This document shows positions 15,264 through 34,900 of a stretch of 40,000 bases of DNA, piece after piece. This DNA comes from Prolixibacteraceae bacterium (GTDB lineage: Bacteria > Bacteroidota > Bacteroidia > Bacteroidales > Prolixibacteraceae), in NCBI GenBank assembly GCA_963666435.2, contig CAXXOG010000008.1:51286-91285 (forward strand). Reading direction: 5' to 3'. Numbering within the stretch: the stretch's first letter is position 1; every line of letters begins with the position of its first letter. The position numbers and the translations under genes were made by a program. The notes beneath the pieces are model-generated. The model was not told the origin of the DNA. It ran no database searches and saw only the letters and a program-made list of their open reading frames with translations.

Positions 15264-15485
15264 AACGGCTACCTCAAGCCCCCAAAACCTTACGTTCGCC
15301 TTTCTCACCCATACGGCTCCGTCACCTTTAAGGCTCACCCGGCAAAGGGTAAATAAAATTCAATAAATCGCTCTACAAATACATACATCCAATCCCGGCG
15401 GGTGCGGTGTATCGAGCTTGCCGGGGTGTAGTTCAACACACACTCATCGCTGGGTCGTGCCGACCGCTCAGAGTCCTATTTATTA
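15264..15485 (-). repeat. junction repeat B1: B-family site module (15485->15350) plus decayed group II intron 3' fragment (15349->15264)
   Basis: Alignable by eye to 16194-16416. The site module begins 14 nt after the HepT stop. The domain V/VI region is mutated here. Confidence 0.75.
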
Positions 15486-15499
15486 TAACCAGTTGTTAT

Positions 15500-15832
15500 T
15501 TAAGCAAGTAGATTATCAATCTCTAATTTCAAGGTAGGCAGATGTCTTACAATCGTTCCCCAGATAATTTCATTGTCAATTTTGTCATAACCATGGATCA
15601 CTCGATTTCGCATACTGATAATTTGTCGTTTACTCGATATCTCAATAGTTGAATCCAATTTCTCAATCCGACTCATTGCTTCTCCTATAATTTCAAACTC
15701 TCGTTCGACCGCTCTTCTCAGCATCTTATCTGCCATATAGACTTTAAAATCACGATTGTCCCCAAGATATTTTAGAATGGAATCTATAGACTCCTGGATG
15801 TCAAACAGATATTTTTTAATCTCATTATCCAT
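15500..15832 (-). CDS. hepT: HepT-like (DUF86/HEPN) toxin
   Basis: Contains the HEPN R-x4-H-x-Y motif as RNRVIHGYD. It overlaps the upstream MNT gene by 8 nt. Confidence 0.85.
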   Translation of the reverse strand: MDNEIKKYLFDIQESIDSILKYLGDNRDFKVYMADKMLRRAVEREFEIIGEAMSRIEKLDSTIEISSKRQIISMRNRVIHGYDKIDNEIIWGTIVRHLPTLKLEIDNLLA

Positions 15833-16127
15833 ATAGCAAGGTTTTTGTTTGGTTAACGGAATTAATAAAATATGGATTAGACAAAGATTTGTCCGTAACT
15901 AAGTCAACGGGTCGTTGAAACAGATCCTCAAATTTATCAGCTAAATCAAAATATGTGTCCGCATAATCTCCGTAGTCCATAGGTTTAAAGGAGATTAGTA
16001 AATCAATATCACTTTTGTCGTTAAATCTGTCGGTGCAGACCGAGCCAAAAACAAATAACGACGCTACATTATGTGTCATGCATAATGATCTGATTCTTTC
16101 AATATTATCGGTTATTAGTCTTTGCAT
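15825..16127 (-). CDS. mntA: MNT-type nucleotidyltransferase antitoxin
   Basis: Contains the minimal nucleotidyltransferase motif FVFGSVCTDRFNDKSDIDLLISF (GS...DxD). Confidence 0.85.
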   Translation of the reverse strand: MQRLITDNIERIRSLCMTHNVASLFVFGSVCTDRFNDKSDIDLLISFKPMDYGDYADTYFDLADKFEDLFQRPVDLVTDKSLSNPYFINSVNQTKTLLYG

Positions 16128-16193: not shown

Positions 16194-16416
16194 ACCGGGT
16201 AGCTTACGCCCCCTAAGAACCGTACGTGCGACTTTCACCGCATACGGCTCAGGCCCTTTTAAGGCTCACCCGGCGGAGGGTAAATAAAATTCAATAAATC
16301 GCTCTACAAATACATACATCCAATCCCGGCGGGTGCGGTGTATCGAGCTTGCCGGGATGTAGTTCAACTCACACTCATCGCTGGGTCGTGCCAACCGCTC
16401 AGAGTCCTATTTATTA
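16194..16416 (-). repeat. junction repeat B2: B-family site module (16416->16281) plus 87-nt group II intron 3' fragment (16280->16194)
   Basis: The fragment carries an intact domain V (GAGCCGTATGCGGTGAAAGTCGCACGTACGGTTC) and domain VI, identical to the 3' end of the full-length introns. Confidence 0.85.
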
Positions 16417-16448
16417 GGTGTTGTAGTACTTTTATCTCGAAAACAATT

Positions 16449-17703: not shown

Positions 17704-17970
17704 ACCGGGTAGCTTACGCCCCCTAAGAACCGTACGTGCGACTTTCACCGCACACGGCTCAGGCACTTTTAAGGCTTGCCCGGCTGTTGTTACTTCAAAA
17801 ACTCAAAATCGGTCGCTAACTGCACACTTCGACAAGCTCTGTAACTACTTCGACAAGCTCTGTAACCTTAGCCCCGAATCCGGCGGGTGCGGTGTATCGA
17901 GCTTGCCGAGGTGTAGTTCAACACACACTCATCGCTGGGTCGTGCCGACCGCTCAGAGTCCTATTTATTA
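17704..17970 (-). repeat. junction repeat B3: B-family site module (17970->17796, with 2 x 21-bp internal tandem repeat) plus 92-nt intron 3' fragment (17795->17704)
   Basis: The fragment matches the full-length intron from the last codons of the RT ORF (GTAACAACAGCCGGG) through domains V-VI. The tandem units acttcgacaagctctgtaac lie at 17826-17867. Confidence 0.85.
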
Positions 17971-17984
17971 GCGCCTGTTGTCTA

Positions 17985-18554
17985 TTATGTCTCAATGGTA
18001 AAACGTTTATATTTAGAAACTATTCTTGTCGTTGTCCAACCGCTAATTGTATATAATTTTCTGATTGAAGTTACTTTTATGATCTCATTCCCTTCCAATG
18101 AAATTGATTCAATTCCTAATAACTTGTTTGTTGAATTCTGATAAAAACCTGATAACAGATTAATTGATTTGTAATTCTCATCAAATTGACACATAGCTGC
18201 GTTGGCATAGTTGGCATAGTTAATCGTATAACTCGGATGATAGCTGGTCGAATCAAATATTTCACCTTTGGGTACACTGATATATTCAACTGGCCATTTC
18301 TCCTCAAATAAATTTTTACTGGCTTCAATAACCCGAAGTTCCAATCCCGCGCCTAATATCTCTTTATTTTCACGAAGAAGATTGGTCGAAGGAATACCAT
18401 CCATATTCAAATCTACCGGTTCGGAAGAAATTGAAGAAATCATTTCATATTTACCATGAAATTTTGCCTTTAATAGTTCAATACTCTCGCTTGAATCATT
18501 CTTATTACAACTAAATAGAATAATAGAAATAAAAATTAATAGACTTTGTTTCAT
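17985..18554 (-). CDS. hypothetical lipoprotein
   Basis: MKQSLLIFISIILFSCNKN is a lipobox-type signal. The ORF is open to 18587, but ATG 18554 fits the signal peptide. Confidence 0.65.
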   Translation of the reverse strand: MKQSLLIFISIILFSCNKNDSSESIELLKAKFHGKYEMISSISSEPVDLNMDGIPSTNLLRENKEILGAGLELRVIEASKNLFEEKWPVEYISVPKGEIFDSTSYHPSYTINYANYANAAMCQFDENYKSINLLSGFYQNSTNKLLGIESISLEGNEIIKVTSIRKLYTISGWTTTRIVSKYKRFTIET

Positions 18555-18676: not shown

Positions 18677-18766
18677 CTGTATGTTTGTAAGTGCGCAATG
18701 CATAAGCCTTCAGTGTTTTTGTAAATTTAGTTTTTGAAAAAGAAACAAAACAAAAAACGAAGACTT

Positions 18767-19843
18767 ATGCTAGCTAAAGGTACGACAATTGATTTTAACG
18801 GGCAAAACGTTTATGCCGGAATTGATATTCATTTAAAGAGTTGGAAGGTAACCATCATGTTGGGAGACCGGGAACATAAAACATTTTCACAAGATCCGAA
18901 TGCAGAAACCCTGTGGAATTACCTGCGGAAGAATTTTCCCGGGGCAGTATATCATTCAGCCTACGAAGCAGGTTTTTGCGGATTCAGCGCCCATCGCGAA
19001 CTTGCGGGTTTTGGGATACACAATCTGGTGGTCAATCCTGCGGATATACCTACCACCGACAAAGAAAAGCGGCAGAAGGAAGACAAACGCGACAGTCGCA
19101 AGATCGCCAAATCGCTCCGTAACGGTGAACTGGTGGGCATCTATGTTCCGGGCAAGGGGATGGAAGAACTGCGTGGTCTGGTTCGTTACCGCAAAACGCT
19201 GGTAAAAGAAATCAGCCGCCATAAGTGCAGGATCAAGTCGTTCATTTATTTTAACGGCATACAAATTCCAATGGAACTGGGCGGCACCTCAACGCATTGG
19301 TCCGGGAGGTTCACCCGGTGGTTAAGCGCAGTTGAATTATCAACGGTACATGGCAAAATGGTACTTGACGACACAGTCGATACGGCAGAACTGCTGCGAA
19401 AAAAACTGTTAAAGGTCAACCGGCATTTGCGTCAGGTTGTCCAGAATGGGGAATATTCACAGCAACTAAGGTTATTGCAGAGCATCCCGGGAATCGGCCT
19501 GATATCGGCCATTACACTTTTGACCGAAATGGAGGATATCCTTCGGTTCAGGAACCTTGACCAACTTTGTTCATTCGTGGGACTGGTACCATCAACCAAC
19601 TCCTCGGGCGAAAAGGAGAATGTTGGTCGTATCACCAGGCGCAACAACCGTTTTCTACGCAGCATTCTTGTAGAGGCAGCCTGGATGGCATCGAGAAAAG
19701 ACCCGTCGCTGTTATATAGCTATGCCTTACTTTGCAAGCGGATGGAACCAACGGAAGCCATCATCCGGATAGCAAAAAAATTACTAAACAGGATAAGATA
19801 TGTAATGAAAAATGAAACAGAATATGTACATTCAGTGCTATAA
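18767..19843 (+). CDS. IS110-family transposase (DEDD N-domain plus Transposase_20-type C-domain)
   Basis: N-terminal VYAGIDIHLKSW and C-terminal LQSIPGIGLISAITLLTEM...FVGLVPSTNSSGEK..GRITRRNNRFLRSILVEAAW are typical of the family. The ORF is open from TTG 18734, but the ATG at 18767 is the likelier start. Confidence 0.9.
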   Translation: MLAKGTTIDFNGQNVYAGIDIHLKSWKVTIMLGDREHKTFSQDPNAETLWNYLRKNFPGAVYHSAYEAGFCGFSAHRELAGFGIHNLVVNPADIPTTDKEKRQKEDKRDSRKIAKSLRNGELVGIYVPGKGMEELRGLVRYRKTLVKEISRHKCRIKSFIYFNGIQIPMELGGTSTHWSGRFTRWLSAVELSTVHGKMVLDDTVDTAELLRKKLLKVNRHLRQVVQNGEYSQQLRLLQSIPGIGLISAITLLTEMEDILRFRNLDQLCSFVGLVPSTNSSGEKENVGRITRRNNRFLRSILVEAAWMASRKDPSLLYSYALLCKRMEPTEAIIRIAKKLLNRIRYVMKNETEYVHSVL

Positions 19844-19899
19844 CATCAAAACTGGTTGTAAAAACTACTCCATGATAAAGAGACTGTTTTCCGCCCCTT

Positions 19900-20140
19900 G
19901 CGGCCCCTGATAGGGTGTCCGTTACACGCAGGCCACAGCTCTTATCTATAATAAATTGAACACAGGAATGCGGCTGGTTGCACCATGTCCGTTGATAGAA
20001 GGGTGTTTTTATAGACCGGTATTTGATACAAAAGAGGGGAACCCGAAGGTGAAGTTTTACACCGAAGGTTTAGAAATTATGCTGGGCTTTTGCCCAGCAT
20101 AATTAAACCAAGAGGGGAAACCCTCAGGCTCTGTATTGCC
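19900..20140 (+). ncRNA. candidate bridge/seek RNA of the IS (3' non-coding region)
   Basis: Four short segments match the insertion chemistry. TACACGCAGG (19923-19932) equals the target left flank plus core. TGCGG (19969-19973) equals the target right flank. ATAGAAGG (19995-20002) equals the IS right end plus core. CTGTAT (20131-20136) equals the IS left end. Two of these follow a repeated GTCCGTT scaffold. The RNA boundaries are not defined. Confidence 0.5.
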
Positions 20141-20233
20141 CAAAGGTTTAGGGATTTAAAAAGTTAACTTACTGAATAGTAGAAAAATAGTTTAAAAATA
20201 AAGAATGAAAAATTTGGATTACAACATAGAAGG

Positions 20234-21162: not shown

Positions 21163-21252
21163 CTGTATGTTTGTAAGTGCGCAATGCATAAGCCTTCAGT
21201 GTTTTTGTAAATTTAGTTTTTGAAAAAGAAACAAAACAAAAAACGAAGACTT

Positions 21253-22329
21253 ATGCTAGCTAAAGGTACGACAATTGATTTTAACGGGCAAAACGTTTAT
21301 GCCGGAATTGATATTCATTTAAAGAGTTGGAAGGTAACCATCATGTTGGGAGACCGGGAACATAAAACATTTTCACAAGATCCGAATGCAGAAACCCTGT
21401 GGAATTACCTGCGGAAGAATTTTCCCGGGGCAGTATATCATTCAGCCTACGAAGCAGGTTTTTGCGGATTCAGCGCCCATCGCGAACTTGCGGGTTTTGG
21501 GATACACAATCTGGTGGTCAATCCTGCGGATATACCTACCACCGACAAAGAAAAGCGGCAGAAGGAAGACAAACGCGACAGTCGCAAGATCGCCAAATCG
21601 CTCCGTAACGGTGAACTGGTGGGCATCTATGTTCCGGGCAAGGGGATGGAAGAACTGCGTGGTCTGGTTCGTTACCGCAAAACGCTGGTAAAAGAAATCA
21701 GCCGCCATAAGTGCAGGATCAAGTCGTTCATTTATTTTAACGGCATACAAATTCCAATGGAACTGGGCGGCACCTCAACGCATTGGTCCGGGAGGTTCAC
21801 CCGGTGGTTAAGCGCAGTTGAATTATCAACGGTACATGGCAAAATGGTACTTGACGACACAGTCGATACGGCAGAACTGCTGCGAAAAAAACTGTTAAAG
21901 GTCAACCGGCATTTGCGTCAGGTTGTCCAGAATGGGGAATATTCACAGCAACTAAGGTTATTGCAGAGCATCCCGGGAATCGGCCTGATATCGGCCATTA
22001 CACTTTTGACCGAAATGGAGGATATCCTTCGGTTCAGGAACCTTGACCAACTTTGTTCATTCGTGGGACTGGTACCATCAACCAACTCCTCGGGCGAAAA
22101 GGAGAATGTTGGTCGTATCACCAGGCGCAACAACCGTTTTCTACGCAGCATTCTTGTAGAGGCAGCCTGGATGGCATCGAGAAAAGACCCGTCGCTGTTA
22201 TATAGCTATGCCTTACTTTGCAAGCGGATGGAACCAACGGAAGCCATCATCCGGATAGCAAAAAAATTACTAAACAGGATAAGATATGTAATGAAAAATG
22301 AAACAGAATATGTACATTCAGTGCTATAA
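21253..22329 (+). CDS. IS110-family transposase (copy 2, identical protein)
   Basis: The ORF-track protein is identical to that of copy 1. Confidence 0.9.
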   Translation: MLAKGTTIDFNGQNVYAGIDIHLKSWKVTIMLGDREHKTFSQDPNAETLWNYLRKNFPGAVYHSAYEAGFCGFSAHRELAGFGIHNLVVNPADIPTTDKEKRQKEDKRDSRKIAKSLRNGELVGIYVPGKGMEELRGLVRYRKTLVKEISRHKCRIKSFIYFNGIQIPMELGGTSTHWSGRFTRWLSAVELSTVHGKMVLDDTVDTAELLRKKLLKVNRHLRQVVQNGEYSQQLRLLQSIPGIGLISAITLLTEMEDILRFRNLDQLCSFVGLVPSTNSSGEKENVGRITRRNNRFLRSILVEAAWMASRKDPSLLYSYALLCKRMEPTEAIIRIAKKLLNRIRYVMKNETEYVHSVL

Positions 22330-22385
22330 CATCAAAACTGGTTGTAAAAACTACTCCATGATAAAGAGACTGTTTTCCGCCCCTT

Positions 22386-22626
22386 GCGGCCCCTGATAGG
22401 GTGTCCGTTACACGCAGGCCACAGCTCTTATCTATAATAAATTGAACACAGGAATGCGGCTGGTTGCACCATGTCCGTTGATAGAAGGGTGTTTTTATAG
22501 ACCGGTATTTGATACAAAAGAGGGGAACCCGAAGGTGAAGTTTTACACCGAAGGTTTAGAAATTATGCTGGGCAAAAGCCCAGCATAATTAAACCAAGAG
22601 GGGAAACCCTCAGGCTCTGTATTGCC
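22386..22626 (+). ncRNA. candidate bridge/seek RNA, copy 2
   Basis: Same sequence as 19900-20140, except that the hairpin loop at 22574-22577 is AAAA instead of TTTT. Confidence 0.45.
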
Positions 22627-22719
22627 CAAAGGTTTAGGGATTTAAAAAGTTAACTTACTGAATAGTAGAAAAATAGTTTAAAAATAAAGAATGAAAAATT
22701 TGGATTACAACATAGAAGG

Positions 22720-22821
22720 TGCGGATCGCGGGCGATTTCCTGTCAAGCCGAAAAGCAGCCCGAGCGGAAAGATGCACACCGAAAACCACTGCTGCCGCGC
22801 TTGACGGGTAGCTGATGTTAT
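22720..22821 (-). repeat. A-family site A2, remainder (carries a 21-bp internal deletion)
   Basis: tgcggatcgcgggcgattt|cctgtcaagccgaaaagc...gacgggtagctgatgttat. The segment ggctaacgccgattttcaatt is missing relative to the other A sites. Confidence 0.8.
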
Positions 22822-23393
22822 GGGCTGCCTTTCGTTTCATTAATACTGTGATTTCTAAAATCTTTCGCGATCACATAGTTGTCACCGACCAAAATAAGTT
22901 TATAATTGTTTGGTTTTAATACACTCTCAAACGACTTTGTCAAAACCCCGTGTTTGTCGCAAACTGCAACAATCTTTTGATTAATTGTAAGTGGAGCCTC
23001 TGATAATTTTCCACTTCCATCCTTCACATTTCCTAAGAATTTGTCAAAAGTGAAATTGATATTCTTGTCGGTTAAATAATTAGTCCAACGTCTCCAACCT
23101 TCGGTAATTTCTTCAATTGCATCCTTTAAGTCGTCAATAAATCTGTCAAAATGGTCTGGTTTCGAGTTTATGTAAGTTGTCACAATAATTTCGTTATAGC
23201 CAATTAATAAAGGATGTTTTTCAAAATAATGGAATTGTCCAATGACACCTTTCTTTAAACTAAATTCCTTTTTGCCAATGAAGTCGAACCGAAATAATTG
23301 CTCGTCAATCTTCAGCGTCAAAAATGTCGCTTGGTAGTTGTCCACTTGAACTGTTTTATTTTGAATATCGTCCAATATCATTTGTGCTGTCAA
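22818..23393 (-). CDS. hypothetical protein
   Basis: 191-aa ORF. Its TAA stop lies inside the ATAAC core of site A2. Confidence 0.6.
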   Translation of the reverse strand: MTAQMILDDIQNKTVQVDNYQATFLTLKIDEQLFRFDFIGKKEFSLKKGVIGQFHYFEKHPLLIGYNEIIVTTYINSKPDHFDRFIDDLKDAIEEITEGWRRWTNYLTDKNINFTFDKFLGNVKDGSGKLSEAPLTINQKIVAVCDKHGVLTKSFESVLKPNNYKLILVGDNYVIAKDFRNHSINETKGSP

Positions 23394-23407
23394 TTAAGGT
23401 TGCCGCA

Positions 23408-25643
23408 ACCGGGTAGCTTACGCCCCCTAAGAACCGTACGTGCGACTTTCACCGCATACGGCTCAGGCACTTTTAAGGCTCACCCGGCGGAGGGCAACCC
23501 GGCTGTTGTTACTTTTTTATTGGACATAAACATAGTAATTTGTTTGCATTCTTTTGCTAAATTAGCTCTCCATTTTGTTCTGTTACTGAAGTATTCATCA
23601 AATTCGGGCAGAAAAGGATTGGCTTCGGCCTTCAGTTTTACATGATACCGAATGGGAACATATCCAATACGGTACAGTCGATGATTCTCTGTTCCGTTTT
23701 TGGTGATCCGCTGATCAGTAAAATGGTTGTCGTGAAAGTAACGATGGTATATCCACCAGCGATTTTTGTTTCCATGCTGGTATTTAGCCCATCGCCTGAG
23801 CTGCCACCAGATGAATGTTGCCAAACGGATGAAAATACGTTTTGAGCAGATGCCTTTGTGGTAGTTCGACCATCCCCTGATTACAGGGTTCAGTATCCGT
23901 ATCAGAGCATGTGCGGGTATTCCACGGTTTTCGTTGATGATCGTTTTCACCTTGTCTCTAAACGATTGGACTGATTCTTTCGATGGACGAATAACCAGTT
24001 TGCCTTTAAATTTACGGACATTCTGTGAAAGGAAGTTAAACCCATCGCTGATATGCGTGATTCTGGATTTTTCGGCAGAGAGTTCTAACCCTCTTTCCAT
24101 CAGGAAGTCGTTTACCAAAGGGATAATCTCTTCGGTAATGACTTCTTTGCTGATGGCCGTGATCACAAAATCGTCGGCATAACGGATGAAGTTCACTTTC
24201 TTGTTTTTCCATCGGGGAAACTTTTTATTGATGGCCGTTTCCAGTCCGTCCAAAACCATGTTCATGATTACCGGTGATATGGTTCCTCCCTGTGGCGTAC
24301 CTTTATCTGTGCGGAACAAACGTTTTTTCTCGATGTAACCGGCTTTTAACCATTGATTAAGAATGGTCTTGTTGACGGGAATATTTTCCAATATCCAGTC
24401 GTGCCGGATGTTATCGAAACAAGATTTGATGTCCGCCTCGAATATCCATTGGGACGAGATTTTTCGGCAGAGCAATTGGAAACAGGCGGCAATGGCATCG
24501 TTGCACGAACGACGAGGTCTGAACCCGTAAGAGTTCTTGTCGGCCAACGATTCGGCCATTGGTTCGAGGGCTATCTTATGCAATGTTTGCATAGCCCTGT
24601 CGCTCATGACCGGAATACTTAACGGACGCTTTTTCCCGTTTTTCTTTGGGATGTAAAGTCGGCGCAATGGTTTCGATCTGTACCCTCTGGATTGGAGTTT
24701 TCGGGCTGCTTCGAGTTTTTCTTCCCCGTTTGTCCAAACGGTGTTGTCAACCCCGGGAGTTGCGCCTCCTTTGTTGGTTGAGACCCTTAGTACAGCCAGT
24801 AATTTAGCGTAGAATGATTTGGTAACAAGGTGCATCAGGGCTTTTGCTTTCGCCCAACGACCTTGTTTTACAGCCTTGGCAATGCGGCGTTGCAGCCTGG
24901 TCACATGTTGGATAACCTTCCGCCATAAAATGGTTTGCCAGTTATTCAATTGGTGTGGGAGCGCACACGATAAACTTTCATCCTCGTTCATTTGCTTTCT
25001 TCCATTTGCAGGTTCTGTAAAACTTTATGCCATAAAGCACCAGATGAAGGTAGGCAGGCTTTCGCCCGTGGTGATGTTGTAAACAAACTCAACCACTATC
25101 CAACCCGTTACAGGAAGGCATTCGCTTTGTTCATCGTCTCTGTCCGGCGTTTCCCGATGCCTCGCGGTTACGGTTTTATCCCGAAAATAATGGGAGAGAG
25201 CGCCGGGCTTACACGTTCCGAATAAATAATCAATTGTGTGGGTTTAGGCCCATCCTGTCTGCCGGCTGATCTACATCCTTGTAGGCACTGCGTTAAACGT
25301 ACCTAACCTGTCAGCTCACCATTTTGGTACAAAGCGTATCATTCTCTTTTTCGCTCCTACTCGCCTGTCGGCAGTAACGGATTGTTCACTATATGTTAGC
25401 CATGCCCACTGATCCAAGCCCTTAATTGACTTTGAGACTTCAAAGACTGTCTGCCTCACGGTTTCCAGCCCCGCCATTGGCTGCACGAGCCCGGCAATTG
25501 GTACTGTTTCCCGGGGGCTTCACCCGGTAATGGCTGCACCATACACCAGGTGCCCCGGTAGGATACTGCTGAAGGAACAGCAGGTTTTGTCAATCAGTTG
25601 TAACTGACTGCAAAACAATTGCTTAATACGACTTCGTGTCGCA
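23408..25643 (-). mobile_element. group II intron, full length, copy 1 (2236 nt; boundaries +/- 2 nt)
   Basis: Domain V lies at 23464->23431 (GAGCCGTATGCGGTGAAAGTCGCACGTACGGTTC). Domain VI (GGGGGC-GUAA-GCUACCC) has a bulged A at 23414, 7 nt from the 3' end. An RT/maturase ORF sits in domain IV, preceded by a ~650-nt 5' ribozyme region. The intron lies exactly between site A3 and the next cassette. Confidence 0.9.
23480..24991 (-). CDS. group II intron reverse transcriptase/maturase (no HNH endonuclease domain)
   Basis: RT motifs RLYIPKKNGKKRPLSIPVMSDRAMQ and FIRYADDFVI (YADD), plus the maturase/X domain RGWSNYH. Length is 503 aa. Confidence 0.95.
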   Translation of the reverse strand: MNEDESLSCALPHQLNNWQTILWRKVIQHVTRLQRRIAKAVKQGRWAKAKALMHLVTKSFYAKLLAVLRVSTNKGGATPGVDNTVWTNGEEKLEAARKLQSRGYRSKPLRRLYIPKKNGKKRPLSIPVMSDRAMQTLHKIALEPMAESLADKNSYGFRPRRSCNDAIAACFQLLCRKISSQWIFEADIKSCFDNIRHDWILENIPVNKTILNQWLKAGYIEKKRLFRTDKGTPQGGTISPVIMNMVLDGLETAINKKFPRWKNKKVNFIRYADDFVITAISKEVITEEIIPLVNDFLMERGLELSAEKSRITHISDGFNFLSQNVRKFKGKLVIRPSKESVQSFRDKVKTIINENRGIPAHALIRILNPVIRGWSNYHKGICSKRIFIRLATFIWWQLRRWAKYQHGNKNRWWIYHRYFHDNHFTDQRITKNGTENHRLYRIGYVPIRYHVKLKAEANPFLPEFDEYFSNRTKWRANLAKECKQITMFMSNKKVTTAGLPSAG

Positions 25644-25790
25644 ATAACGTAGGAAGCTACACGCAGGTGCGGATTGCGGGCGATTTGGCTAACGCCGATT
25701 TTCAATTCCTGTCAAGCCGAAAAGCCGACCGAGCGGAAAGATGCACACCGAAAACCACCGAACCCGCACTTGACGGGTAGCTGATGTTAT
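25644..25790 (-). repeat. A-family attC-like site A3 (intact)
   Basis: Imperfect inverted arms: TAACGTAGGAAGCTACACGCAGGTGCGG ... CCGCACTTGACGGGTAGCTGATGTTA. It starts ~20 nt after the stop of the 25811-26359 ORF. Confidence 0.85.
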
Positions 25791-25810
25791 GGTGCGTTTT
25801 CCTTTGTCTG

Positions 25811-26359
25811 TCAAGCATCTCCGTTAACCATTAGTTCATAATATTCTCCTTTTGTCAGGTTGATTTTAAGGTTAAAATAGCAATTCCCGCCATCCATAAC
25901 TTCTATTATCTCTTTTTTCCAATCAGTGTCCCAAGTGTTACAAAAGCAATTTACCCAAATTTCCTTTTCTCCTTGTGAATTAATGGCCGCAATATATTGT
26001 CGTTTGTAACGGGACAAATCAATGATAAAATTTTTCTTGTCCAGTTTATAATTTGGGTGCTTGTCATTTATTTCCTTGAATTGTCTCTCTTGGTCTGGGT
26101 TATAATTGTCAATACATTCTTTTAATAATTTCTCAACTTGCGTCAAGTCAGCATTTGTCAGCTCCACCGGTTTGCTGTCTATAAACAACCATTTTTGCGC
26201 CGTGTCAAACGGTAAAACGGCTATGGTAGAAGTGTCAATTTGTAAAGATGTCGAACTTAAAACTCCGTCTTTACTTGCAACTTGATTCTGTCCACAGCAT
26301 GAAAGGTTGACAGTCAAAACCAAAACTAATATTGTCATTTGTCTAATCATTCGTGTCAC
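25811..26359 (-). CDS. hypothetical secreted protein
   Basis: 182-aa ORF with an N-terminal signal-like segment (MTILVLVLTVNLSCCGQ). Confidence 0.65.
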   Translation of the reverse strand: MTRMIRQMTILVLVLTVNLSCCGQNQVASKDGVLSSTSLQIDTSTIAVLPFDTAQKWLFIDSKPVELTNADLTQVEKLLKECIDNYNPDQERQFKEINDKHPNYKLDKKNFIIDLSRYKRQYIAAINSQGEKEIWVNCFCNTWDTDWKKEIIEVMDGGNCYFNLKINLTKGEYYELMVNGDA

Positions 26360-26374
26360 TCTTTTAAATGCGCC

Positions 26375-26640
26375 AACCGGGTAGCTTATGCCCCCTAAAG
26401 AACCTTACATTCAACTTTCACCTCACACGGCTCAGGCACCTTTAAGGCTCACCCGGTTGTTATTACTTCAAAAACCATAAAACGGTCGCTAAGTGCATAC
26501 TTCGACAAGCTCTGTAACTACTTCGACAAGCTCTGTAAACACTTCGACAAGCTCTGTAATCTTAGCCCCGATCCCGGCGGGTGCGGTTCAACCGGGAATA
26601 ATCGCTGGGTCGTGCCGACCGCTCAGAGTCCTATTTATTA
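26375..26640 (-). repeat. junction repeat B4: B-family site module (26640->26469, 3 x 21-bp internal tandem repeat) plus decayed 94-nt intron 3' fragment (26468->26375)
   Basis: Homologous to B3. The tandem units lie at 26499-26561. Domain V carries several substitutions. Confidence 0.8.
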
Positions 26641-26651
26641 GCACCAGTTTT

Positions 26652-27356
26652 CTATGTGTCAGTTGTAATATCGTCCCAATTTTCGTCATAATATGTTACC
26701 CAATTTATTGCGTAATGTCTTTCTTCTACAATACTCTCATCTATTCTAAGTTTCTCTAACTTATCCAAATCAGCTTGTCTTGTCGCCCAATGTAATCTAT
26801 AAGTCAAGTCAGAGATGTCAAGTATTTCCGAAACTGTCCGAAGAGTCGCCTTTTCCACAAATTCATTCGTATCTGCCATGAAATCTGGAACGAGGCTTAA
26901 TAATTTTGATATTTCAACTTGTTCAATTGGCAATTCTAACTTTTCAACTTTGTTAATTGCCCAAAGTAGAATCCAAATGGCTTCTGATCGCCACGAAATA
27001 TTTATCTTGTCTTGGTCCGTAAGTTCGTTTTTGAAAAGTTCAATTTCAGCATTTGAAATACTGTTCCAGAGTCCTTGTTGTTTTAGAAAATCAACTACAT
27101 TTTCCTTGTCATCTGGTTCTTCCGCAATATAATTCAGATAAATTAAAACCAATATTCTCTTTGCTATTTCTTGAGGTGTCCTAATTCTTGCGTCACTTTC
27201 TTCTTCAATTGCAGGCAAATGGTCAATAAACGGAATAGCTAAAGACTTTAAATATTTCTCAGTCTGTGCTTTTCTTTCTTTAGCAGTCTTTTGCTCTGAT
27301 TGCTTGCCTCTTTTATAAATGTCAAATAGTCCCATTCTTAATATTGTTGTGTCCAC
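26652..27356 (-). CDS. hypothetical protein (possibly DUF4272-like; from memory, unverified)
   Basis: 234-aa ORF. The start is GTG 27356 or ATG 27335. The cassette is bracketed by a 13/14 inverted repeat. Confidence 0.6.
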   Translation of the reverse strand: MDTTILRMGLFDIYKRGKQSEQKTAKERKAQTEKYLKSLAIPFIDHLPAIEEESDARIRTPQEIAKRILVLIYLNYIAEEPDDKENVVDFLKQQGLWNSISNAEIELFKNELTDQDKINISWRSEAIWILLWAINKVEKLELPIEQVEISKLLSLVPDFMADTNEFVEKATLRTVSEILDISDLTYRLHWATRQADLDKLEKLRIDESIVEERHYAINWVTYYDENWDDITTDT

Positions 27357-27372
27357 TTAAAATTGGTGCTAA

Positions 27373-27497
27373 CGTTGAGGGTATGCAGCGTGCGGGAGTT
27401 CGTGGCCACTTCCTTATCCACCGTTACTGCCCTTGCCAGCGAGCCCTGAGCTTGCAAATGGCTCTGAAACCCGCATGTTGTATACCCTGTGTTGAAC
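27373..27497 (-). repeat. C-family attC-like site
   Basis: Imperfect inverted arms: (A)ACGTTGAGGGTATGCAGCGTGCGGG ... CCCGCATGTTGTATACCCTGTGTTGAAC. It shares the AACGT..GCAG.GTGCGG layout with family A. Confidence 0.75.
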
Positions 27498-27559
27498 TAA
27501 ATCCGCCTTCGCGGATAGCTTTTTAAAACTACCCGATTCTTCCTATTCTAAGGAATTAA

Positions 27560-27832
27560 TCACAACAAAAATTTCTGAATATGAGAAAGAAATCGGGTTT
27601 TAATATTGTTGAGCAGGCCATTGTGCTTGTTCCTGAGTTTGAAAAAGTTGTCCGCAAGTTGGCGTACATGGGAAAGGTATGCCCAATTGCCAGCGAAAAT
27701 GACTAAAAACAGGTGGCCAAACACGATTTTACCAGTGCTGTGAAACCATAAAAGCACTAAAACCTGCAATACGTCAAAAAACGTTATCTCATTAATTTCC
27801 TTCAAAAACTCAAAATCGGTCGCAAAGTGCAT
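27560..27832 (-). CDS. doubtful small ORF in a ~310-bp cassette (may be ORF-less)
   Basis: 90-aa ORF whose first 8 codons lie inside repeat B5. No motif recognised. Confidence 0.2.
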   Translation of the reverse strand: MHFATDFEFLKEINEITFFDVLQVLVLLWFHSTGKIVFGHLFLVIFAGNWAYLSHVRQLADNFFKLRNKHNGLLNNIKTRFLSHIQKFLL

Positions 27833-27909
27833 AGCTCCGATCCCGGCGGGTGTAGTTCAACACAGACTCATCGCTAGGCGTTGCACGCCACTCAGAGTCC
27901 TATTTATTA
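27809..27909 (-). repeat. junction repeat B5: B-family site module without any intron fragment (uninvaded form)
   Basis: Homologous to the site-module part of B3 and B4. It lacks domains V-VI and carries a compensated hairpin variant at 27877-27889. Confidence 0.8.
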
Positions 27910-27926
27910 GCAACCGTATCTTATTA

Positions 27927-28556
27927 TCATTTCTCAAGTTGTTGTCTGATTAAAGCATAAACTAATCCAAGCGTTAGAACAATAAGAAATATTAGCCAGC
28001 CATAGCCGCTGTATTTATTATTCTTGTTTGCAGTATATGCGTTAGTCGCATTTTTTGTCTTAATATTTCTCCTAACTCTTTGAAGTTCTCCATTGAAAAT
28101 ATAATAATCTGAAATTTCAAACGAGTTATACTTTATTTTTTTACCATTCTTTAATTCTATGATAGTCTTGTCTCCACTATATACATTTATGTTTCGACCA
28201 GCATGTGAGGGATTTATTTTAAAATCTCCTTCTGTTACGCTTTTAATTTCAGTCAATGGTATGGCCTTAGTCAAAAATATTAGAGGCCTTTTTATTAAAA
28301 AACTCTTATCTGTCAGAACAAAAGTTTTGACTGTCAGTAGCATTACCAAACAGGCAGAAGCAAAGAAAACAAATGAGCCAAATGTCACGCACATAATTAT
28401 TAAACCAACTGGCCCATCGGTTCCCTTTTCAATTACCCATATTGTTGGCCGTGTCATATAAGTAAACGCGCCAAAGAAAATAGTCCCGAAGAGTCCGAAT
28501 CCGATAGTTTTCACACTCAAAGAAGTTGTCAAAATATTTGTCTCTGTTGTCTCCAT
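27927..28556 (-). CDS. hypothetical membrane protein (2 N-terminal TM, soluble middle domain, C-terminal TM)
   Basis: ATG 28556 (METTETN...) is the first start outside repeat A4. The track ORF extends to 28628 only by reading through the repeat. Confidence 0.6.
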   Translation of the reverse strand: METTETNILTTSLSVKTIGFGLFGTIFFGAFTYMTRPTIWVIEKGTDGPVGLIIMCVTFGSFVFFASACLVMLLTVKTFVLTDKSFLIKRPLIFLTKAIPLTEIKSVTEGDFKINPSHAGRNINVYSGDKTIIELKNGKKIKYNSFEISDYYIFNGELQRVRRNIKTKNATNAYTANKNNKYSGYGWLIFLIVLTLGLVYALIRQQLEK

Positions 28557-28567
28557 AATATGGTTGC

Positions 28568-28713
28568 TAACGTAGGAAGCTACACGCAGGTGCGGTTTGC
28601 GGGCGATTTGGCTAACGCCGATTTTCAATTCCTGTCAAGCTGATAAACAGCCCGAGCGGAAAGATGCACCCCGAAAACCACCAAACCCGCACTTGACGGG
28701 TAGCTGATGTTAC
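28568..28713 (-). repeat. A-family attC-like site A4 (intact)
   Basis: Same architecture as A3, with a few substitutions. It starts ~12 nt after the stop of the TIR-like ORF. Confidence 0.85.
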
Positions 28714-28725
28714 CTGCATGTGCCT

Positions 28726-29385
28726 TTATTCTGTCATTTGTTTTAGGTCATCCAAATCTTTTCTCATTTGGTCTAAGTTATTCTTATTAATCAGTGGACC
28801 AAACTGGGTTGCAATTATTTCAAGTTCAACTTTTCTCGAACGAGCAATTAGTTCAATTAATTTCTTAAAACGGTCATTTGTTAATTCAAATTCGTCTGTT
28901 GCGCTTCCTAATTTTTTAAGATGATTAGTCACTCTAATTCCTAATCTTTGAATTTCGTTTTGAATTAATGTTGTCGGAGCACCTAATGATGCTAAAAGAT
29001 TACCGTCTGAATGCTCTTGAAAAGAGGCAAATGTTATTCCTGCTAGATCAGTAGGGATTTTGATTTGCTTTGAACGGTCAAAGACAATGAATGTTCTGTC
29101 TCGACCGATGCCGCCAACAAAAAGACCAAGCTCAAACAGTACATTGTCTCGAGGTGATTGTGTCGTTTGCTCTTTTGAGGTTGTCATGTCGTCAGGCGTT
29201 AGAGCAAGTATTGCGAAATCATACTTATCCAAAGCAAGAACTAACGATTCTAATGTCCCTTGGCTGAGACCAAATACTCCTTGACTCCAGATTGTCACTT
29301 CGCAACTGTTGTCAAGTAGCACTTGGATTGATTGAGCAACTTTTAGTCCTTCAGTGGAAGAACCAATAAAAATCTTAGGTCTCAT
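28726..29385 (-). CDS. TIR-like nucleotide-binding domain protein (pfam10137 / Cap12-type N-domain) with helical C-terminal domain
   Basis: MRPKIFIGSSTEGLKVA..I...L.....V..WSQGVF......L......YDFAILALTPDD..........PRDNVLFELGLFVGGIGRDR matches the pattern recalled for the TIR-like family. Confidence 0.7.
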   Translation of the reverse strand: MRPKIFIGSSTEGLKVAQSIQVLLDNSCEVTIWSQGVFGLSQGTLESLVLALDKYDFAILALTPDDMTTSKEQTTQSPRDNVLFELGLFVGGIGRDRTFIVFDRSKQIKIPTDLAGITFASFQEHSDGNLLASLGAPTTLIQNEIQRLGIRVTNHLKKLGSATDEFELTNDRFKKLIELIARSRKVELEIIATQFGPLINKNNLDQMRKDLDDLKQMTE

Positions 29386-29459
29386 TTATTCTGCACTTTT
29401 TGTATTATTTATGTGTCAATTTGTAAAACTCACTGTCTGCTGTCCTCTGGCATTGCAGG

Positions 29460-31695
29460 ACCGGGTAGCTTACGCCCCCTAAGAACCGTACGTGCGACTT
29501 TCACCGCATACGGCTCAGGCACTTTTAAGGCTCACCCGGCGGAGGGCAACCCGGCTGTTGTTACTTTTTTATTGGACATAAACATAGTAATTTGTTTGCA
29601 TTCTTTTGCTAAATTAGCTCTCCATTTTGTTCTGTTACTGAAGTATTCATCAAATTCGGGCAGAAAAGGATTGGCTTCGGCCTTCAGTTTTACATGATAC
29701 CGAATGGGAACATATCCAATACGGTACAGTCGATGATTCTCTGTTCCGTTTTTGGTGATCCGCTGATCAGTAAAATGGTTGTCGTGAAAGTAACGATGGT
29801 ATATCCACCAGCGATTTTTGTTTCCATGCTGGTATTTAGCCCATCGCCTGAGCTGCCACCAGATGAATGTTGCCAAACGGATGAAAATACGTTTTGAGCA
29901 GATGCCTTTGTGGTAGTTCGACCATCCCCTGATTACAGGGTTCAGTATCCGTATCAGAGCATGTGCGGGTATTCCACGGTTTTCGTTGATGATCGTTTTC
30001 ACCTTGTCTCTAAACGATTGGACTGATTCTTTCGATGGACGAATAACCAGTTTGCCTTTAAATTTACGGACATTCTGTGAAAGGAAGTTAAACCCATCGC
30101 TGATATGCGTGATTCTGGATTTTTCGGCAGAGAGTTCTAACCCTCTTTCCATCAGGAAGTCGTTTACCAAAGGGATAATCTCTTCGGTAATGACTTCTTT
30201 GCTGATGGCCGTGATCACAAAATCGTCGGCATAACGGATGAAGTTCACTTTCTTGTTTTTCCATCGGGGAAACTTTTTATTGATGGCCGTTTCCAGTCCG
30301 TCCAAAACCATGTTCATGATTACCGGTGATATGGTTCCTCCCTGTGGCGTACCTTTATCTGTGCGGAACAAACGTTTTTTCTCGATGTAACCGGCTTTTA
30401 ACCATTGATTAAGAATGGTCTTGTTGACGGGAATATTTTCCAATATCCAGTCGTGCCGGATGTTATCGAAACAAGATTTGATGTCCGCCTCGAATATCCA
30501 TTGGGACGAGATTTTTCGGCAGAGCAATTGGAAACAGGCGGCAATGGCATCGTTGCACGAACGACGAGGTCTGAACCCGTAAGAGTTCTTGTCGGCCAAC
30601 GATTCGGCCATTGGTTCGAGGGCTATCTTATGCAATGTTTGCATAGCCCTGTCGCTCATGACCGGAATACTTAACGGACGCTTTTTCCCGTTTTTCTTTG
30701 GGATGTAAAGTCGGCGCAATGGTTTCGATCTGTACCCTCTGGATTGGAGTTTTCGGGCTGCTTCGAGTTTTTCTTCCCCGTTTGTCCAAACGGTGTTGTC
30801 AACCCCGGGAGTTGCGCCTCCTTTGTTGGTTGAGACCCTTAGTACAGCCAGTAATTTAGCGTAGAATGATTTGGTAACAAGGTGCATCAGGGCTTTTGCT
30901 TTCGCCCAACGACCTTGTTTTACAGCCTTGGCAATGCGGCGTTGCAGCCTGGTCACATGTTGGATAACCTTCCGCCATAAAATGGTTTGCCAGTTATTCA
31001 ATTGGTGTGGGAGCGCACACGATAAACTTTCATCCTCGTTCATTTGCTTTCTTCCATTTGCAGGTTCTGTAAAACTTTATGCCATAAAGCACCAGATGAA
31101 GGTAGGCAGGCTTTCGCCCGTGGTGATGTTGTAAACAAACTCAACCACTATCCAACCCGTTACAGGAAGGCATTCGCTTTGTTCATCGTCTCTGTCCGGC
31201 GTTTCCCGATGCCTCGCGGTTACGGTTTTATCCCGAAAATAATGGGAGAGAGCGCCGGGCTTACACGTTCCGAATAAATAATCAATTGTGTGGGTTTAGG
31301 CCCATCCTGTCTGCCGGCTGATCTACATCCTTGTAGGCACTGCGTTAAACGTACCTAACCTGTCAGCTCACCATTTTGGTACAAAGCGTATCATTCTCTT
31401 TTTCGCTCCTACTCGCCTGTCGGCAGTAACGGATTGTTCACTATATGTTAGCCATGCCCACTGATCCAAGCCCTTAATTGACTTTGAGACTTCAAAGACT
31501 GTCTGCCTCACGGTTTCCAGCCCCGCCATTGGCTGCACGAGCCCGGCAATTGGTACTGTTTCCCGGGGGCTTCACCCGGTAATGGCTGCACCATACACCA
31601 GGTGCCCCGGTAGGATACTGCTGAAGGAACAGCAGGTTTTGTCAATCAGTTGTAACTGACTGCAAAACAATTGCTTAATACGACTTCGTGTCGCA
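29460..31695 (-). mobile_element. group II intron, full length, copy 2 (identical to copy 1)
   Basis: Offset of +6052 from copy 1. Identity extends through the adjoining A site (29460-31838 equals 23408-25786). Confidence 0.9.
29532..31043 (-). CDS. group II intron reverse transcriptase/maturase (copy 2)
   Basis: Its 503-aa translation is identical to that of 23480-24991. Confidence 0.95.
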   Translation of the reverse strand: MNEDESLSCALPHQLNNWQTILWRKVIQHVTRLQRRIAKAVKQGRWAKAKALMHLVTKSFYAKLLAVLRVSTNKGGATPGVDNTVWTNGEEKLEAARKLQSRGYRSKPLRRLYIPKKNGKKRPLSIPVMSDRAMQTLHKIALEPMAESLADKNSYGFRPRRSCNDAIAACFQLLCRKISSQWIFEADIKSCFDNIRHDWILENIPVNKTILNQWLKAGYIEKKRLFRTDKGTPQGGTISPVIMNMVLDGLETAINKKFPRWKNKKVNFIRYADDFVITAISKEVITEEIIPLVNDFLMERGLELSAEKSRITHISDGFNFLSQNVRKFKGKLVIRPSKESVQSFRDKVKTIINENRGIPAHALIRILNPVIRGWSNYHKGICSKRIFIRLATFIWWQLRRWAKYQHGNKNRWWIYHRYFHDNHFTDQRITKNGTENHRLYRIGYVPIRYHVKLKAEANPFLPEFDEYFSNRTKWRANLAKECKQITMFMSNKKVTTAGLPSAG

Positions 31696-31842
31696 ATAAC
31701 GTAGGAAGCTACACGCAGGTGCGGATTGCGGGCGATTTGGCTAACGCCGATTTTCAATTCCTGTCAAGCCGAAAAGCCGACCGAGCGGAAAGATGCACAC
31801 CGAAAACCACCGAACCCGCACTTGACGGGTAGCTGAAGTTAT
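31696..31842 (-). repeat. A-family attC-like site A5 (intact)
   Basis: Identical to A3 up to the outer core. It starts ~15 nt after the stop of the 31858-32139 ORF. Confidence 0.85.
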
Positions 31843-31857
31843 AGGGCGTTTTTCGTT

Positions 31858-34460: not shown

Positions 34461-34900
34461 TCGCGTACTCTCAGGATGGCTCTGCGCTGTTGTAGTATCA
34501 CATCGCGCACTCATAAGACAGCTTCGCACGGTTGTAAGACGGTTCCGCGCACTCTTAAGATGGCTTCGCACGGTCTTAAGACGGTTCCGCGCACTCACAA
34601 GACGGCTTTGCACGGTCTTAAGACGGTTCCGCGCACTCACAAGATGGCTTCGCACGGTCTTAAGACGGTTCCGCGCACTCACAAGACAGCTTCGCGCGGT
34701 TGTAAGATGGTTCCGCAGTATCTTAATACGGTTCCGCGTGCCATTTAGATGACTTTGCAGACACTTTATGCGGCTTTGCAACACCCCTCCGATGACTTTG
34801 CAGGCACTTTATCCGGCTTTGTAACACCCCTCCGATGGCTTTGCAGGCACTTTATGCGGCTTTGTAACACTCTTCCGATGACTTTGCAGGTGGCTTTCCC
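34461..34900. repeat. tandem array of ~21 units of 21 bp (42/43-bp higher-order periodicity)
   Basis: Units in register at 34503, 34524, 34545 ... alternate ccgcgcactcacaagatggct and tcgcacggtcttaagacggtt. From 34748 there are three 43-bp units, gatgactttgcag.cactttat.cggctttg.aacac.c.tcc. Confidence 0.9.

Follow-up and report, generated by a model that had tools for sequence, protein, structure and literature searches.

Two identical endonuclease-less group IIB introns in sense orientation at attC-type sites of a cassette array from a Prolixibacteraceae bacterium

We analysed 40,000 nucleotides (the window) of contig CAXXOG010000008.1 from a Prolixibacteraceae bacterium (assembly GCA_963666435.2, positions 51,286 to 91,285), in which two identical group II introns lie at the junctions of an array of gene cassettes. 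It is quite likely that they are two recently copied, probably active introns of the chloroplast-like (CL) IIB lineage, CL1 type, whose protein lacks an endonuclease domain, and that they retrohomed into the top strand of near-identical attC sites in an array resembling a cluster of attC sites lacking integrases (CALIN).

Results

Boundaries and integrity of the introns

Intron copy 1 was located at 23408..25644 and copy 2 at 29460..31696, both on the minus strand. Each is 2237 nt long and runs from 5' UUGCGAC to CUACCCGGU 3', the ends being fixed by an empty target site and by the complementarity of the R'' and R' sides of the site. The copies matched at 2236/2236 nt on direct alignment, with 0 differences over the full 2237 nt, and domains V and VI, domain I and the reverse transcriptase (RT) open reading frame (ORF) are intact in both, in agreement with an earlier note on this DNA that had described two 100% identical full-length introns. 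The 5' ends given there, 25643 and 31695, proved to be 1 nt short, as the junction GTTA/TTGCG (slashes mark junctions and crossover points) gives 25644 and 31696. On the minus strand the 5' junction reads ...GTAGCTTCCTACGTTA/TTGCGACACG, and the predicted ligated exons of the two copies are ...CCUACGUUA/UGCGGCAACC and ...CCUACGUUA/CCUGCAAUG.

These ends, UUGCG ... GU, depart from the canonical group II ends (5' GUGYG ... AY 3'), and the earlier note had suspected that the 5' boundary might be off by 1-2 nt. This was right as far as its coordinates were concerned, whereas UUGCG itself is genuine, because ~30 independent insertions share it without exception, although the exon base before it may be A or G; the UUGCG...GGU ends are also kept in the published IIB1 intron UHB.I2. 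A shift of the boundary by 1-2 nt to regain GUGYG is ruled out by the variable A/G beside the invariant UUGCG, and equally by the empty site, the R''/R' complementarity and related introns that stand in tandem with 0 nt between them.

Rfam matches were taken at the gathering score, which is 40 bits for RF00029. Domains V and VI match this model with 59.8 bits in both copies (23408..23466 and 29460..29518, minus strand), and the core of domain I matches RF02012 over the full model length with 63.4 bits (25418..25584 and 31470..31636, minus strand). Domain VI has the sequence GGGGGC-GUAA-GCUACCC-GGU with a bulged A 7 nt from the 3' end; the intact domain V and the GUAA-looped domain VI had been described correctly. 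After 652 nt of RNA, each intron carries the same 503-aa protein (23480..24991 and 29532..31043, minus strand) with RT0-7, the X/maturase region and a C-terminal DNA-binding region. Pfam recognised RVT_N, RVT_1 and GIIM, the YADD motif is at residue 271, and the match to NCBIfam TIGR04416 reached 356 bits against a cut-off of 300. The Pfam scan of the protein found no HNH or other endonuclease domain, again as previously noted. Judging by these intact motifs, both introns are probably active.

Insertion point in the A-type attC elements

Five A-type elements of ~148 nt each occur in the array, built in the order R''(..ATAAC), spacer, imperfect hairpin, spacer and GTTR. Sequence and DNA folds give them the attC layout, with an RYYYAAC-like R'', unpaired spacers, an L''/L' stem and GTTR. 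Two of them hold the intron, one is empty and two are split by nearly identical IS110-family insertion sequence (IS) elements. The 5' exon of copy 1 is the element at 25645..25792 (minus strand; R'' CCATAAC, R' GTTA), with a predicted long imperfect hairpin, and that of copy 2 is at 31697..31844 (minus strand; R'' CTATAAC, R' GTTA), which differs from the first by 1 base. The unoccupied element at 28568..28715 (minus strand), 94% identical to the occupied pair, reads ...GTAGCTTCCTACGTTA/GCAACC and confirms the insertion point as ...CGTTA/GCAACC. The introns are thus inserted after 5'-CGTTR-3' of the R' core, 3 nt past the G/TT crossover, so the exact placement at the cassette core claimed in the earlier note holds.

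Origin of the second copy

The identity of the two copies stops exactly at the 3' nucleotide of the intron, beyond which unrelated cassettes follow. On the other side it runs on through the upstream A site, as had been noted, where the actual figure is 2378/2379 and not the claimed 2379 bp of complete identity; the single mismatch is at 25785/31837, 4 further matching bases lie beyond the 2379-bp stretch, and then the upstream cassettes differ as well. With 0 differences between them, and 9-13% DNA divergence from the nearest relatives elsewhere, the two copies point to very recent copying, and since there is no downstream homology arm for duplication at the DNA level, retrohoming is the simplest source of the second copy.

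An alternative is that the second copy arose by DNA-level duplication or conversion of a block of attC plus intron, through unequal recombination or gene conversion between A-type attCs. It would account for the identity that continues 148 nt past the intron and takes in the whole upstream attC to R'' with one mismatch, a similarity that the third intact A site does not reach, and the 2.4-kb direct repeats 6 kb apart would be good recombination substrates. We nevertheless regard this origin as rather improbable, because the cassettes are unrelated from the last intron nucleotide onwards and also differ upstream, and because in other genomes the element has entered at this very nucleotide dozens of times independently, so that it does home there. 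On the simplest reading, the intron retrohomed first and gene conversion then spread from it into the attC.

The cassette array

Almost every ORF between ~14.4 and 32.6 kb is encoded on the minus strand, with repeated elements in between, and the cassette ORFs share the strand of the introns, so the co-orientation reported in the earlier note is confirmed. The cassette downstream of copy 2 (28716..29459, minus strand) contains a TIR-domain ORF (28726-29385), and the start CCTGCAATG and the end CATGCAGG of this cassette are complementary to each other. Downstream of copy 1 there is a cassette at 22824..23407 (minus strand) with an ORF at 22818-23393 that has no Pfam match. When copy 2 was removed in silico, the junction became GTTA+CCTGCAATG, and the same cassette ends in ...CATGCAGGTAAC, its complement except for one base; the claim that removal of the intron restores a cassette-specific R' is therefore correct but for this base. 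Starts complementary to the sequence just before the cassette's own R'' were found in the TIR, DUF4272 and redoxin cassettes and in the cassette at 27927-28628; examples in addition to GTTA+CCTGCAATG against CATGCAGGTAAC are GTTAGCACCAATTTT against AAAACTGGTGCTAAT and GCAACCATATTA against GATACGGTTGC-TAAT. Such complementarity is the footprint that circular cassettes recombined at G/TT would be predicted to leave. A separate canonical-looking site is present at 27370-27497 (GTTCAAC...GTTA).

The contents (HepT/MNT, a CAP12-type TIR protein, DUF4272, DUF4279 and redoxin) are typical of cassettes. Two of these cassettes are of the defence or addiction type, namely the HepT/MNT toxin-antitoxin pair at 15500-16127 and the CAP12/Pycsar-type TIR effector.

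No integron integrase was found by Pfam among the major window ORFs scanned (5539-39177), and a motif scan of the fetched related loci found Xer-like recombinases only; the tyrosine recombinases of these loci scored 178 bits in NCBIfam, against the 265-bit cut-off of TIGR02249. Because no integrase was found and ordinary genes bound the array, we call it CALIN-like.

The missing integrase could also mean that the repeats belong to another intergenic palindromic family and not to integron attC sites, the intron simply homing to a conserved repeat, and surveys with IntegronFinder do report almost no integrons in Bacteroidetes (PMC9024848). Every unit, however, has the attC layout, the starts of cassettes are complementary to their own ends, the content is that of cassettes, and IS110-family elements sit within the sites as IS1111-attC elements do, so that this reading of the repeats appears very unlikely.

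Assignment to the IIB lineage

In a search of PDB sequences the 503-aa RT matched the maturase of the group IIB intron T.el4h (6ME0_C) with an E value of 3.6e-147 and 494 bits, aligned over residues 15-476. The IIA protein LtrA reached 141 bits (E 6e-40), and the IIC RTs of GsI-IIC, E. rectale and R. intestinalis 102-129 bits (E 3e-36 to 4e-28). The PDB scores, the identity with the UHB.I2 protein and a neighbour-joining tree all group the protein with CL/IIB proteins. In the tree the Bacteroidota clade stands apart, the complementary split having 91% support; UHB.I2 joined Legionellales sequences with 46% support and was not resolved as sister to the Bacteroidota clade. The RF02012 model of domain I is also matched, with 101-110 bits, by canonical GUGCG-type CL1-like relatives from Legionellales.

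Sequence comparison thus places the introns in the chloroplast-like IIB lineage of CL1 type, the choice between CL1 and CL2 depending on the published placement of UHB.I2. The earlier note had assigned them to class C (IIC), which fails on RT similarity, as the RT falls with the chloroplast-like IIB maturases. Behaviour at the target does resemble class C: intron-binding site 1 (IBS1) is 5 nt long, IBS2 gives no signal, and the majority of sites adjoin a hairpin foot. This likeness is one of behaviour only and not of membership. That a class C subgroup of the IIC-attC kind has switched to the sense strand, as the endonuclease-less RT, the insertion at a stem-loop foot, the short IBS1 and the undetectable IBS2 might suggest, is extremely improbable in view of the low IIC scores of the RT, the 652 nt of RNA 5' of the ORF, the match of domain I to RF02012 shared with CL1-like relatives and the phylogenetic placement of the nearest published relative, UHB.I2, in CL1/IIB1.

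Recognition of the target site

The 31 unique 5' exons of the introns are conserved only at -5 to -1 (C29 G29 T29 T29 A24/G7; 1.2-1.65 bits), and positions -6 to -22 carry little information, at most ~0.5 bit per position. Among 67 unique 3' exons, a C-A-A-K motif at +5 to +8 is a feature of cassette starts.

Domain I has a loop, GUUUAACGCAG, assigned as exon-binding site 1 (EBS1), at 25288..25298 in copy 1 and 31340..31350 in copy 2 (minus strand), in which UAACG (25291-25295) is complementary to CGUUA of the 5' exon; CGUUG can be accommodated by a G.U pair. In an alignment of domain I from ~40 copies, the hairpin lies at intron nt 340-363 and its loop GUUUAACGCA is invariant in the attC-associated clade. 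Six of the 7 pairs of the closing stem change on both sides; its cells are paired in 88.6% of cases against 63.8% in shuffles, and 0/500 shuffles reached the observed score. The homologous loops of Legionellales introns match their own exons (AUCCAC/GUGGAU, UUUAUA/UAUAAA, CGUAU/AUACG and CUUAG/CUAAG, loop and exon separated by a slash). From the loop of UHB.I2, GUAGAACGU, a 5' exon ending in ACGTTCT was predicted, and contig LFIK01005957 shows ...ATCTTTACGTTCT/TTGCGACATG, as predicted. The assignment of the GUUUAACGCA loop as the EBS1 that would pair with the R' core is thus supported by covariation and by the confirmed prediction for UHB.I2. The loop is similar, too, to RYYYAAC, the R'' consensus of attC sites.

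No signal of EBS2/IBS2 pairing was seen in the attC-associated clade, where the best complementary run averaged 4.42 nt, hardly longer than the 4.31 +/- 0.16 nt obtained when pairings were permuted. The outgroup introns have a further segment (EBS2) that matches the exon at -8 to -14 over 5-8 nt. Identical introns within one genome occupy sites with unrelated sequence at -6 to -20. A candidate EBS2, UAGGA in GAGUAGGAGCG, which would pair with UCCUA of the A site, was rejected as a general rule; GGAGCG in this segment belongs to the conserved structure, and relatives that share the segment are found at unrelated sites. As for EBS3/IBS3, the +1 base in the 67 unique 3' exons of these near-identical introns is G in 32, T in 25, A in 5 and C in 5; no complementarity to any one EBS3 base was detectable, and these counts show no demand on the 3' exon.

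The window contains 157 CGTTR pentamers on both strands, so five nucleotides cannot be the whole target code. Most occupied sites adjoin the 3' foot of an imperfect hairpin of 110-140 nt. A long helix ends 4-12 nt upstream of 20 of 30 occupied sites, and the same holds for 170 of 500 control CGTTR pentamers from the same loci (34%); the helices upstream of occupied sites span 50-140 nt, most of them 107-142 nt. This criterion, based on minimum free energy, replaced a detector of attC by 8-mer inverted repeats (13/30 sites, 46/600 control pentamers), which was too strict because of bulged bases. Some relatives sit at sites without a hairpin (loci L013, L015 and L078), so the structure is not strictly required.

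Related introns in Bacteroidota

A scan of one genome per species gave 75 related loci, almost all in Bacteroidota, with Prolixibacteraceae, Marinilabiliaceae, Mariniphaga, Draconibacterium and metagenome-assembled genomes (MAGs) of Bacteroidales as hosts; the insertion site and orientation seen in the window are typical of these loci. The closest relatives are from Prolixibacteraceae and Bacteroidales MAGs, and RT homologues of 64-90% identity are abundant in metagenomes. Every full-length copy begins with TTGCGAC and finishes with CTACCCGGT. The canonical relatives L039, L041, L047, L042 and L054 start with GUGCG and sit outside attC sites, and U at the first intron position therefore goes with association to attC. 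ORFs flanking the relatives total 75.9 kb in sense and 32.9 kb in antisense to the intron, and in many cases a start codon of that strand follows immediately in the 3' exon.

Tandem copies arranged head to tail, with 0 nt separating them, were found in CAXXIC010000001, a Bacteroidales MAG (L009-L011; for example L010, 4921-7157 and 7158-9394). Such tandems are expected if recognition lies wholly in the 5' exon, as an occupied site then remains a target. The tandem copies adjoin repeated antisense genes of Xer-like tyrosine recombinases.

One relative, L078 (position 7347; ENA ERZ21878447 ctg34839l), is a 90%-identical intron that interrupts a SpoIIE/PP2C-type gene, in sense, within its 3' end at AATACGTTA/; no attC is present there. 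In L077 (7348) a solitary A-type attC precedes an intron copy, and a gene for mannitol dehydrogenase and another group II RT, unrelated to that of the copy, lie beside them. The 5' exon of L036 (~440-505) consists of the 3' end of another type of group II intron (sequence resembling domains V and VI) and then TTTAACGTTA, so by sequence two intron types appear nested or adjacent there. A Prolixibacteraceae genome (OY759981/OY759982, L055-L069) holds many ~500-nt 3' fragments of the intron that start near intron nt 1736-1754, all with an intact 3' junction onto cassette-like starts, which suggests that one truncated form may have been propagated.

Intron remnants and other elements of the array

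Four more junctions of the array hold 3'-terminal remnants (80-107 nt) of the same intron in the same orientation, 2/4 of which reach the RF00029 gathering score. The remnant at 16194..16283 corresponds to the last 90 nt with 2 mismatches (59.8 bits) and that at 17704..17795 to the last ~107 nt with a 15-nt deletion (54.5 bits); a degenerate one at 26376..26456 covers the last 80 nt, and the most diverged one, at 15266..15352, the last ~88 nt (all on the minus strand). No significant pieces of the intron 5' end were present in the four remnants, which are plain 3' fragments. They indicate that the association of the intron with the array is old as well as recent. Each remnant ends exactly where the specific sequence of the next cassette begins, and they pair by a common upstream junction, 15.3k with 16.2k and 17.7k with 26.4k.

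The two IS110-family elements lie on the plus strand at 18677-20232 and 21163-22718, with transposase ORFs at 18734-19843 and 21220-22329 (NF033542, 205 bits). Both are inserted at one internal position of A-type attCs (...CCGCCCC/IS/CCTGCGTGTAGC...), on the strand opposite to the cassettes.

A second kind of junction element, the B type (TAATAAATAGGACTC...), was seen at 15408-15500, 16339-16431, 17893-17985, 26563-26655 and 27832-27924. These elements begin with R''-TAAT-AAATAGGACTCTGAGCGG and hold GTTGAAC; they gave no single convincing attC fold and are only partly explained. Four of them are followed by an ORF-less stretch and then by an intron remnant, and the fifth (27.9k) by a normal 90-aa cassette with its own attC. 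A 21-nt unit (TTACAGAGCTTGTCGAAGTNG) is present in 2-3 tandem copies inside the B-type composites at 17826-17893 and 26499-26587. Just outside the array, 34462-34890 is a tract of dense tandem repeats with a period of 21 nt and then 43 nt, which coincides in part with short ORFs on both strands whose Pfam matches are weak and coiled-coil-like.

Discussion

Comparison with known introns and attC-associated elements

The closest published counterpart is UHB.I2 (Sonbol & Siam, Mob DNA 2021;12:8, PMC7923331), which was found in the metagenome of the Tanatar-5 soda lake, occupies a cassette array and is classed as IIB1/CL1. Both have an endonuclease-less CL-type protein, the orientation of the cassettes, top-strand insertion at the R' core of attC, UUGCG...GGU ends, apparently no recognisable EBS3 and an EBS1 loop complementary to (A)CGTTxx. 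The proteins, however, are only 48-49% identical (E 7e-163; protein from the supplement of the paper), UHB.I2 inserts after GTTCT, 4 nt past the crossover, whereas the window introns insert after GTTR, 3 nt past it, and UHB.I2 has no RF02012 match at the gathering score. UHB.I2 is also a single example, and the Bacteroidota clade comprises dozens of insertions.

The IIC-attC introns (Leon & Roy 2009; Quiroga et al. 2008; PMC3001079) are likewise endonuclease-less and specialised on attC, enter at the hairpin base by way of a very short IBS1 (3-5 nt, without an IBS2) and are also found in CALINs. They belong to another class by RNA and protein, and S.ma.I2 and its relatives insert in the bottom strand at TTGT/T in R'', antisense to the cassettes (PMC3001079, PMC7923331), as the earlier note had stated; the window introns, in contrast, are in the top strand after CGTTR, in sense. 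A further difference is that IIC-attC introns need an outward promoter for expression of downstream genes. Class C introns in the orientation of the cassettes have been described from E. cloacae (Rodriguez-Martinez et al. 2012, as cited in PMC7923331) and S. algae KC-Na-R1 (PMC9229058); going by these descriptions, they are isolated cases.

Mobile elements of another kind that are specialised on attC are the IS1111-attC elements (Post & Hall 2008, as cited in PMC9229058), which the IS110-family copies in the window resemble and which are DNA transposons and not retroelements. Unlike the introns, the IS110-family copies of the window lie inside the hairpin and not at R', on the opposite strand.

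T.el4h homes in the conventional, sequence-specific manner of IIB introns, pairs through EBS1, EBS2 and EBS3, has canonical ends and is not known to be associated with attC. Its maturase, from Thermosynechococcus (PDB 6ME0, 6MEC, 8FLI), is the closest one with a solved structure, at ~50% identity, and the RT, X and D regions could be aligned.

Possible mechanism and points that weigh against it

In the mechanism that we propose, the 5-nt pairing would be supplemented by the single-stranded folded attC, a strategy like that of class C reached by convergence. As the protein has no endonuclease, the intron may reverse-splice into DNA exposed at the replication fork and use the nascent strand as primer; endonuclease-less introns use replication-fork DNA (Zimmerly & Semper 2015). 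The plus strand has negative GC skew in 17/19 segments of the window, including the left 14 kb with plus-strand genes, and 34/42 related loci have G-rich flanks on the intron strand. The sense strand of the intron is thus the G-rich strand, which would point to insertion into the lagging-strand template. Because of its sense orientation, the intron could be spliced from read-through transcripts of the cassettes and leave their expression intact, and its position 3' of the crossover point would allow an integrase to carry it along with the downstream cassette.

Several observations weigh against the interpretation as attC-specific retrohoming introns. With no integrase in the window or the fetched loci, the label attC is given by architecture, and the activity of the introns is read from their intact motifs. 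The near-identity of the two upstream attCs (1 mismatch) is not produced by simple reverse splicing, and either later gene conversion spreading from the 2.2-kb repeat or homing into already identical sites would explain it. The enrichment of hairpins is modest, in a comparison in which the control loci themselves hold unoccupied attCs; L013 and L015 are without a hairpin, and L078 is in a SpoIIE-type gene. The position of EBS2 was placed by alignment with the outgroups, and a shifted or non-canonical EBS2 is possible. Finally, the GC skew is confounded by the coding-strand composition of the cassettes.

Significance

According to the working rule, the targeting of attC is a speciality of class C, and other bacterial group II lineages home by long pairing (Zimmerly & Semper 2015), with a single IIB exception in attC reported in 2021 (Sonbol & Siam, PMC7923331). 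A IIB intron in sense in an attC thus has one published precedent, and its kind is known but barely documented. The window and its ~75 relatives extend the exception to a sizeable lineage, active as far as its intact motifs indicate, with one fixed insertion point in the R' core, a testable EBS1/R' pairing, an apparent loss of the use of EBS2 and EBS3, and U1 ... GU ends. In the literature searched, this picture at the level of a lineage, with its fixed CGTTR site, EBS1/R' pairing, U1 ends, insertions in tandem, abundance in the arrays of Bacteroidia and lack of any signal of EBS2 or EBS3, appears to be undescribed.

The lineage represents a natural experiment in the re-wiring of intron target specificity, and it documents long cassette arrays in Bacteroidia that have been invaded by two kinds of attC-specific mobile element. 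Unlike IIC-attC introns, introns in sense orientation would leave the downstream cassettes unsilenced. We tentatively suggest, as a possibility that we hold to be somewhat less than even, that a CL-IIB clade widespread in Bacteroidia arrays dropped the EBS2/EBS3 code for a convergent strategy like that of class C, on the top strand and with an EBS1 that mimics R''. If this were true, a spliceable sense intron 3' of G/TT would be a phenotypically silent passenger, shuttled by the integrase together with the downstream cassette.

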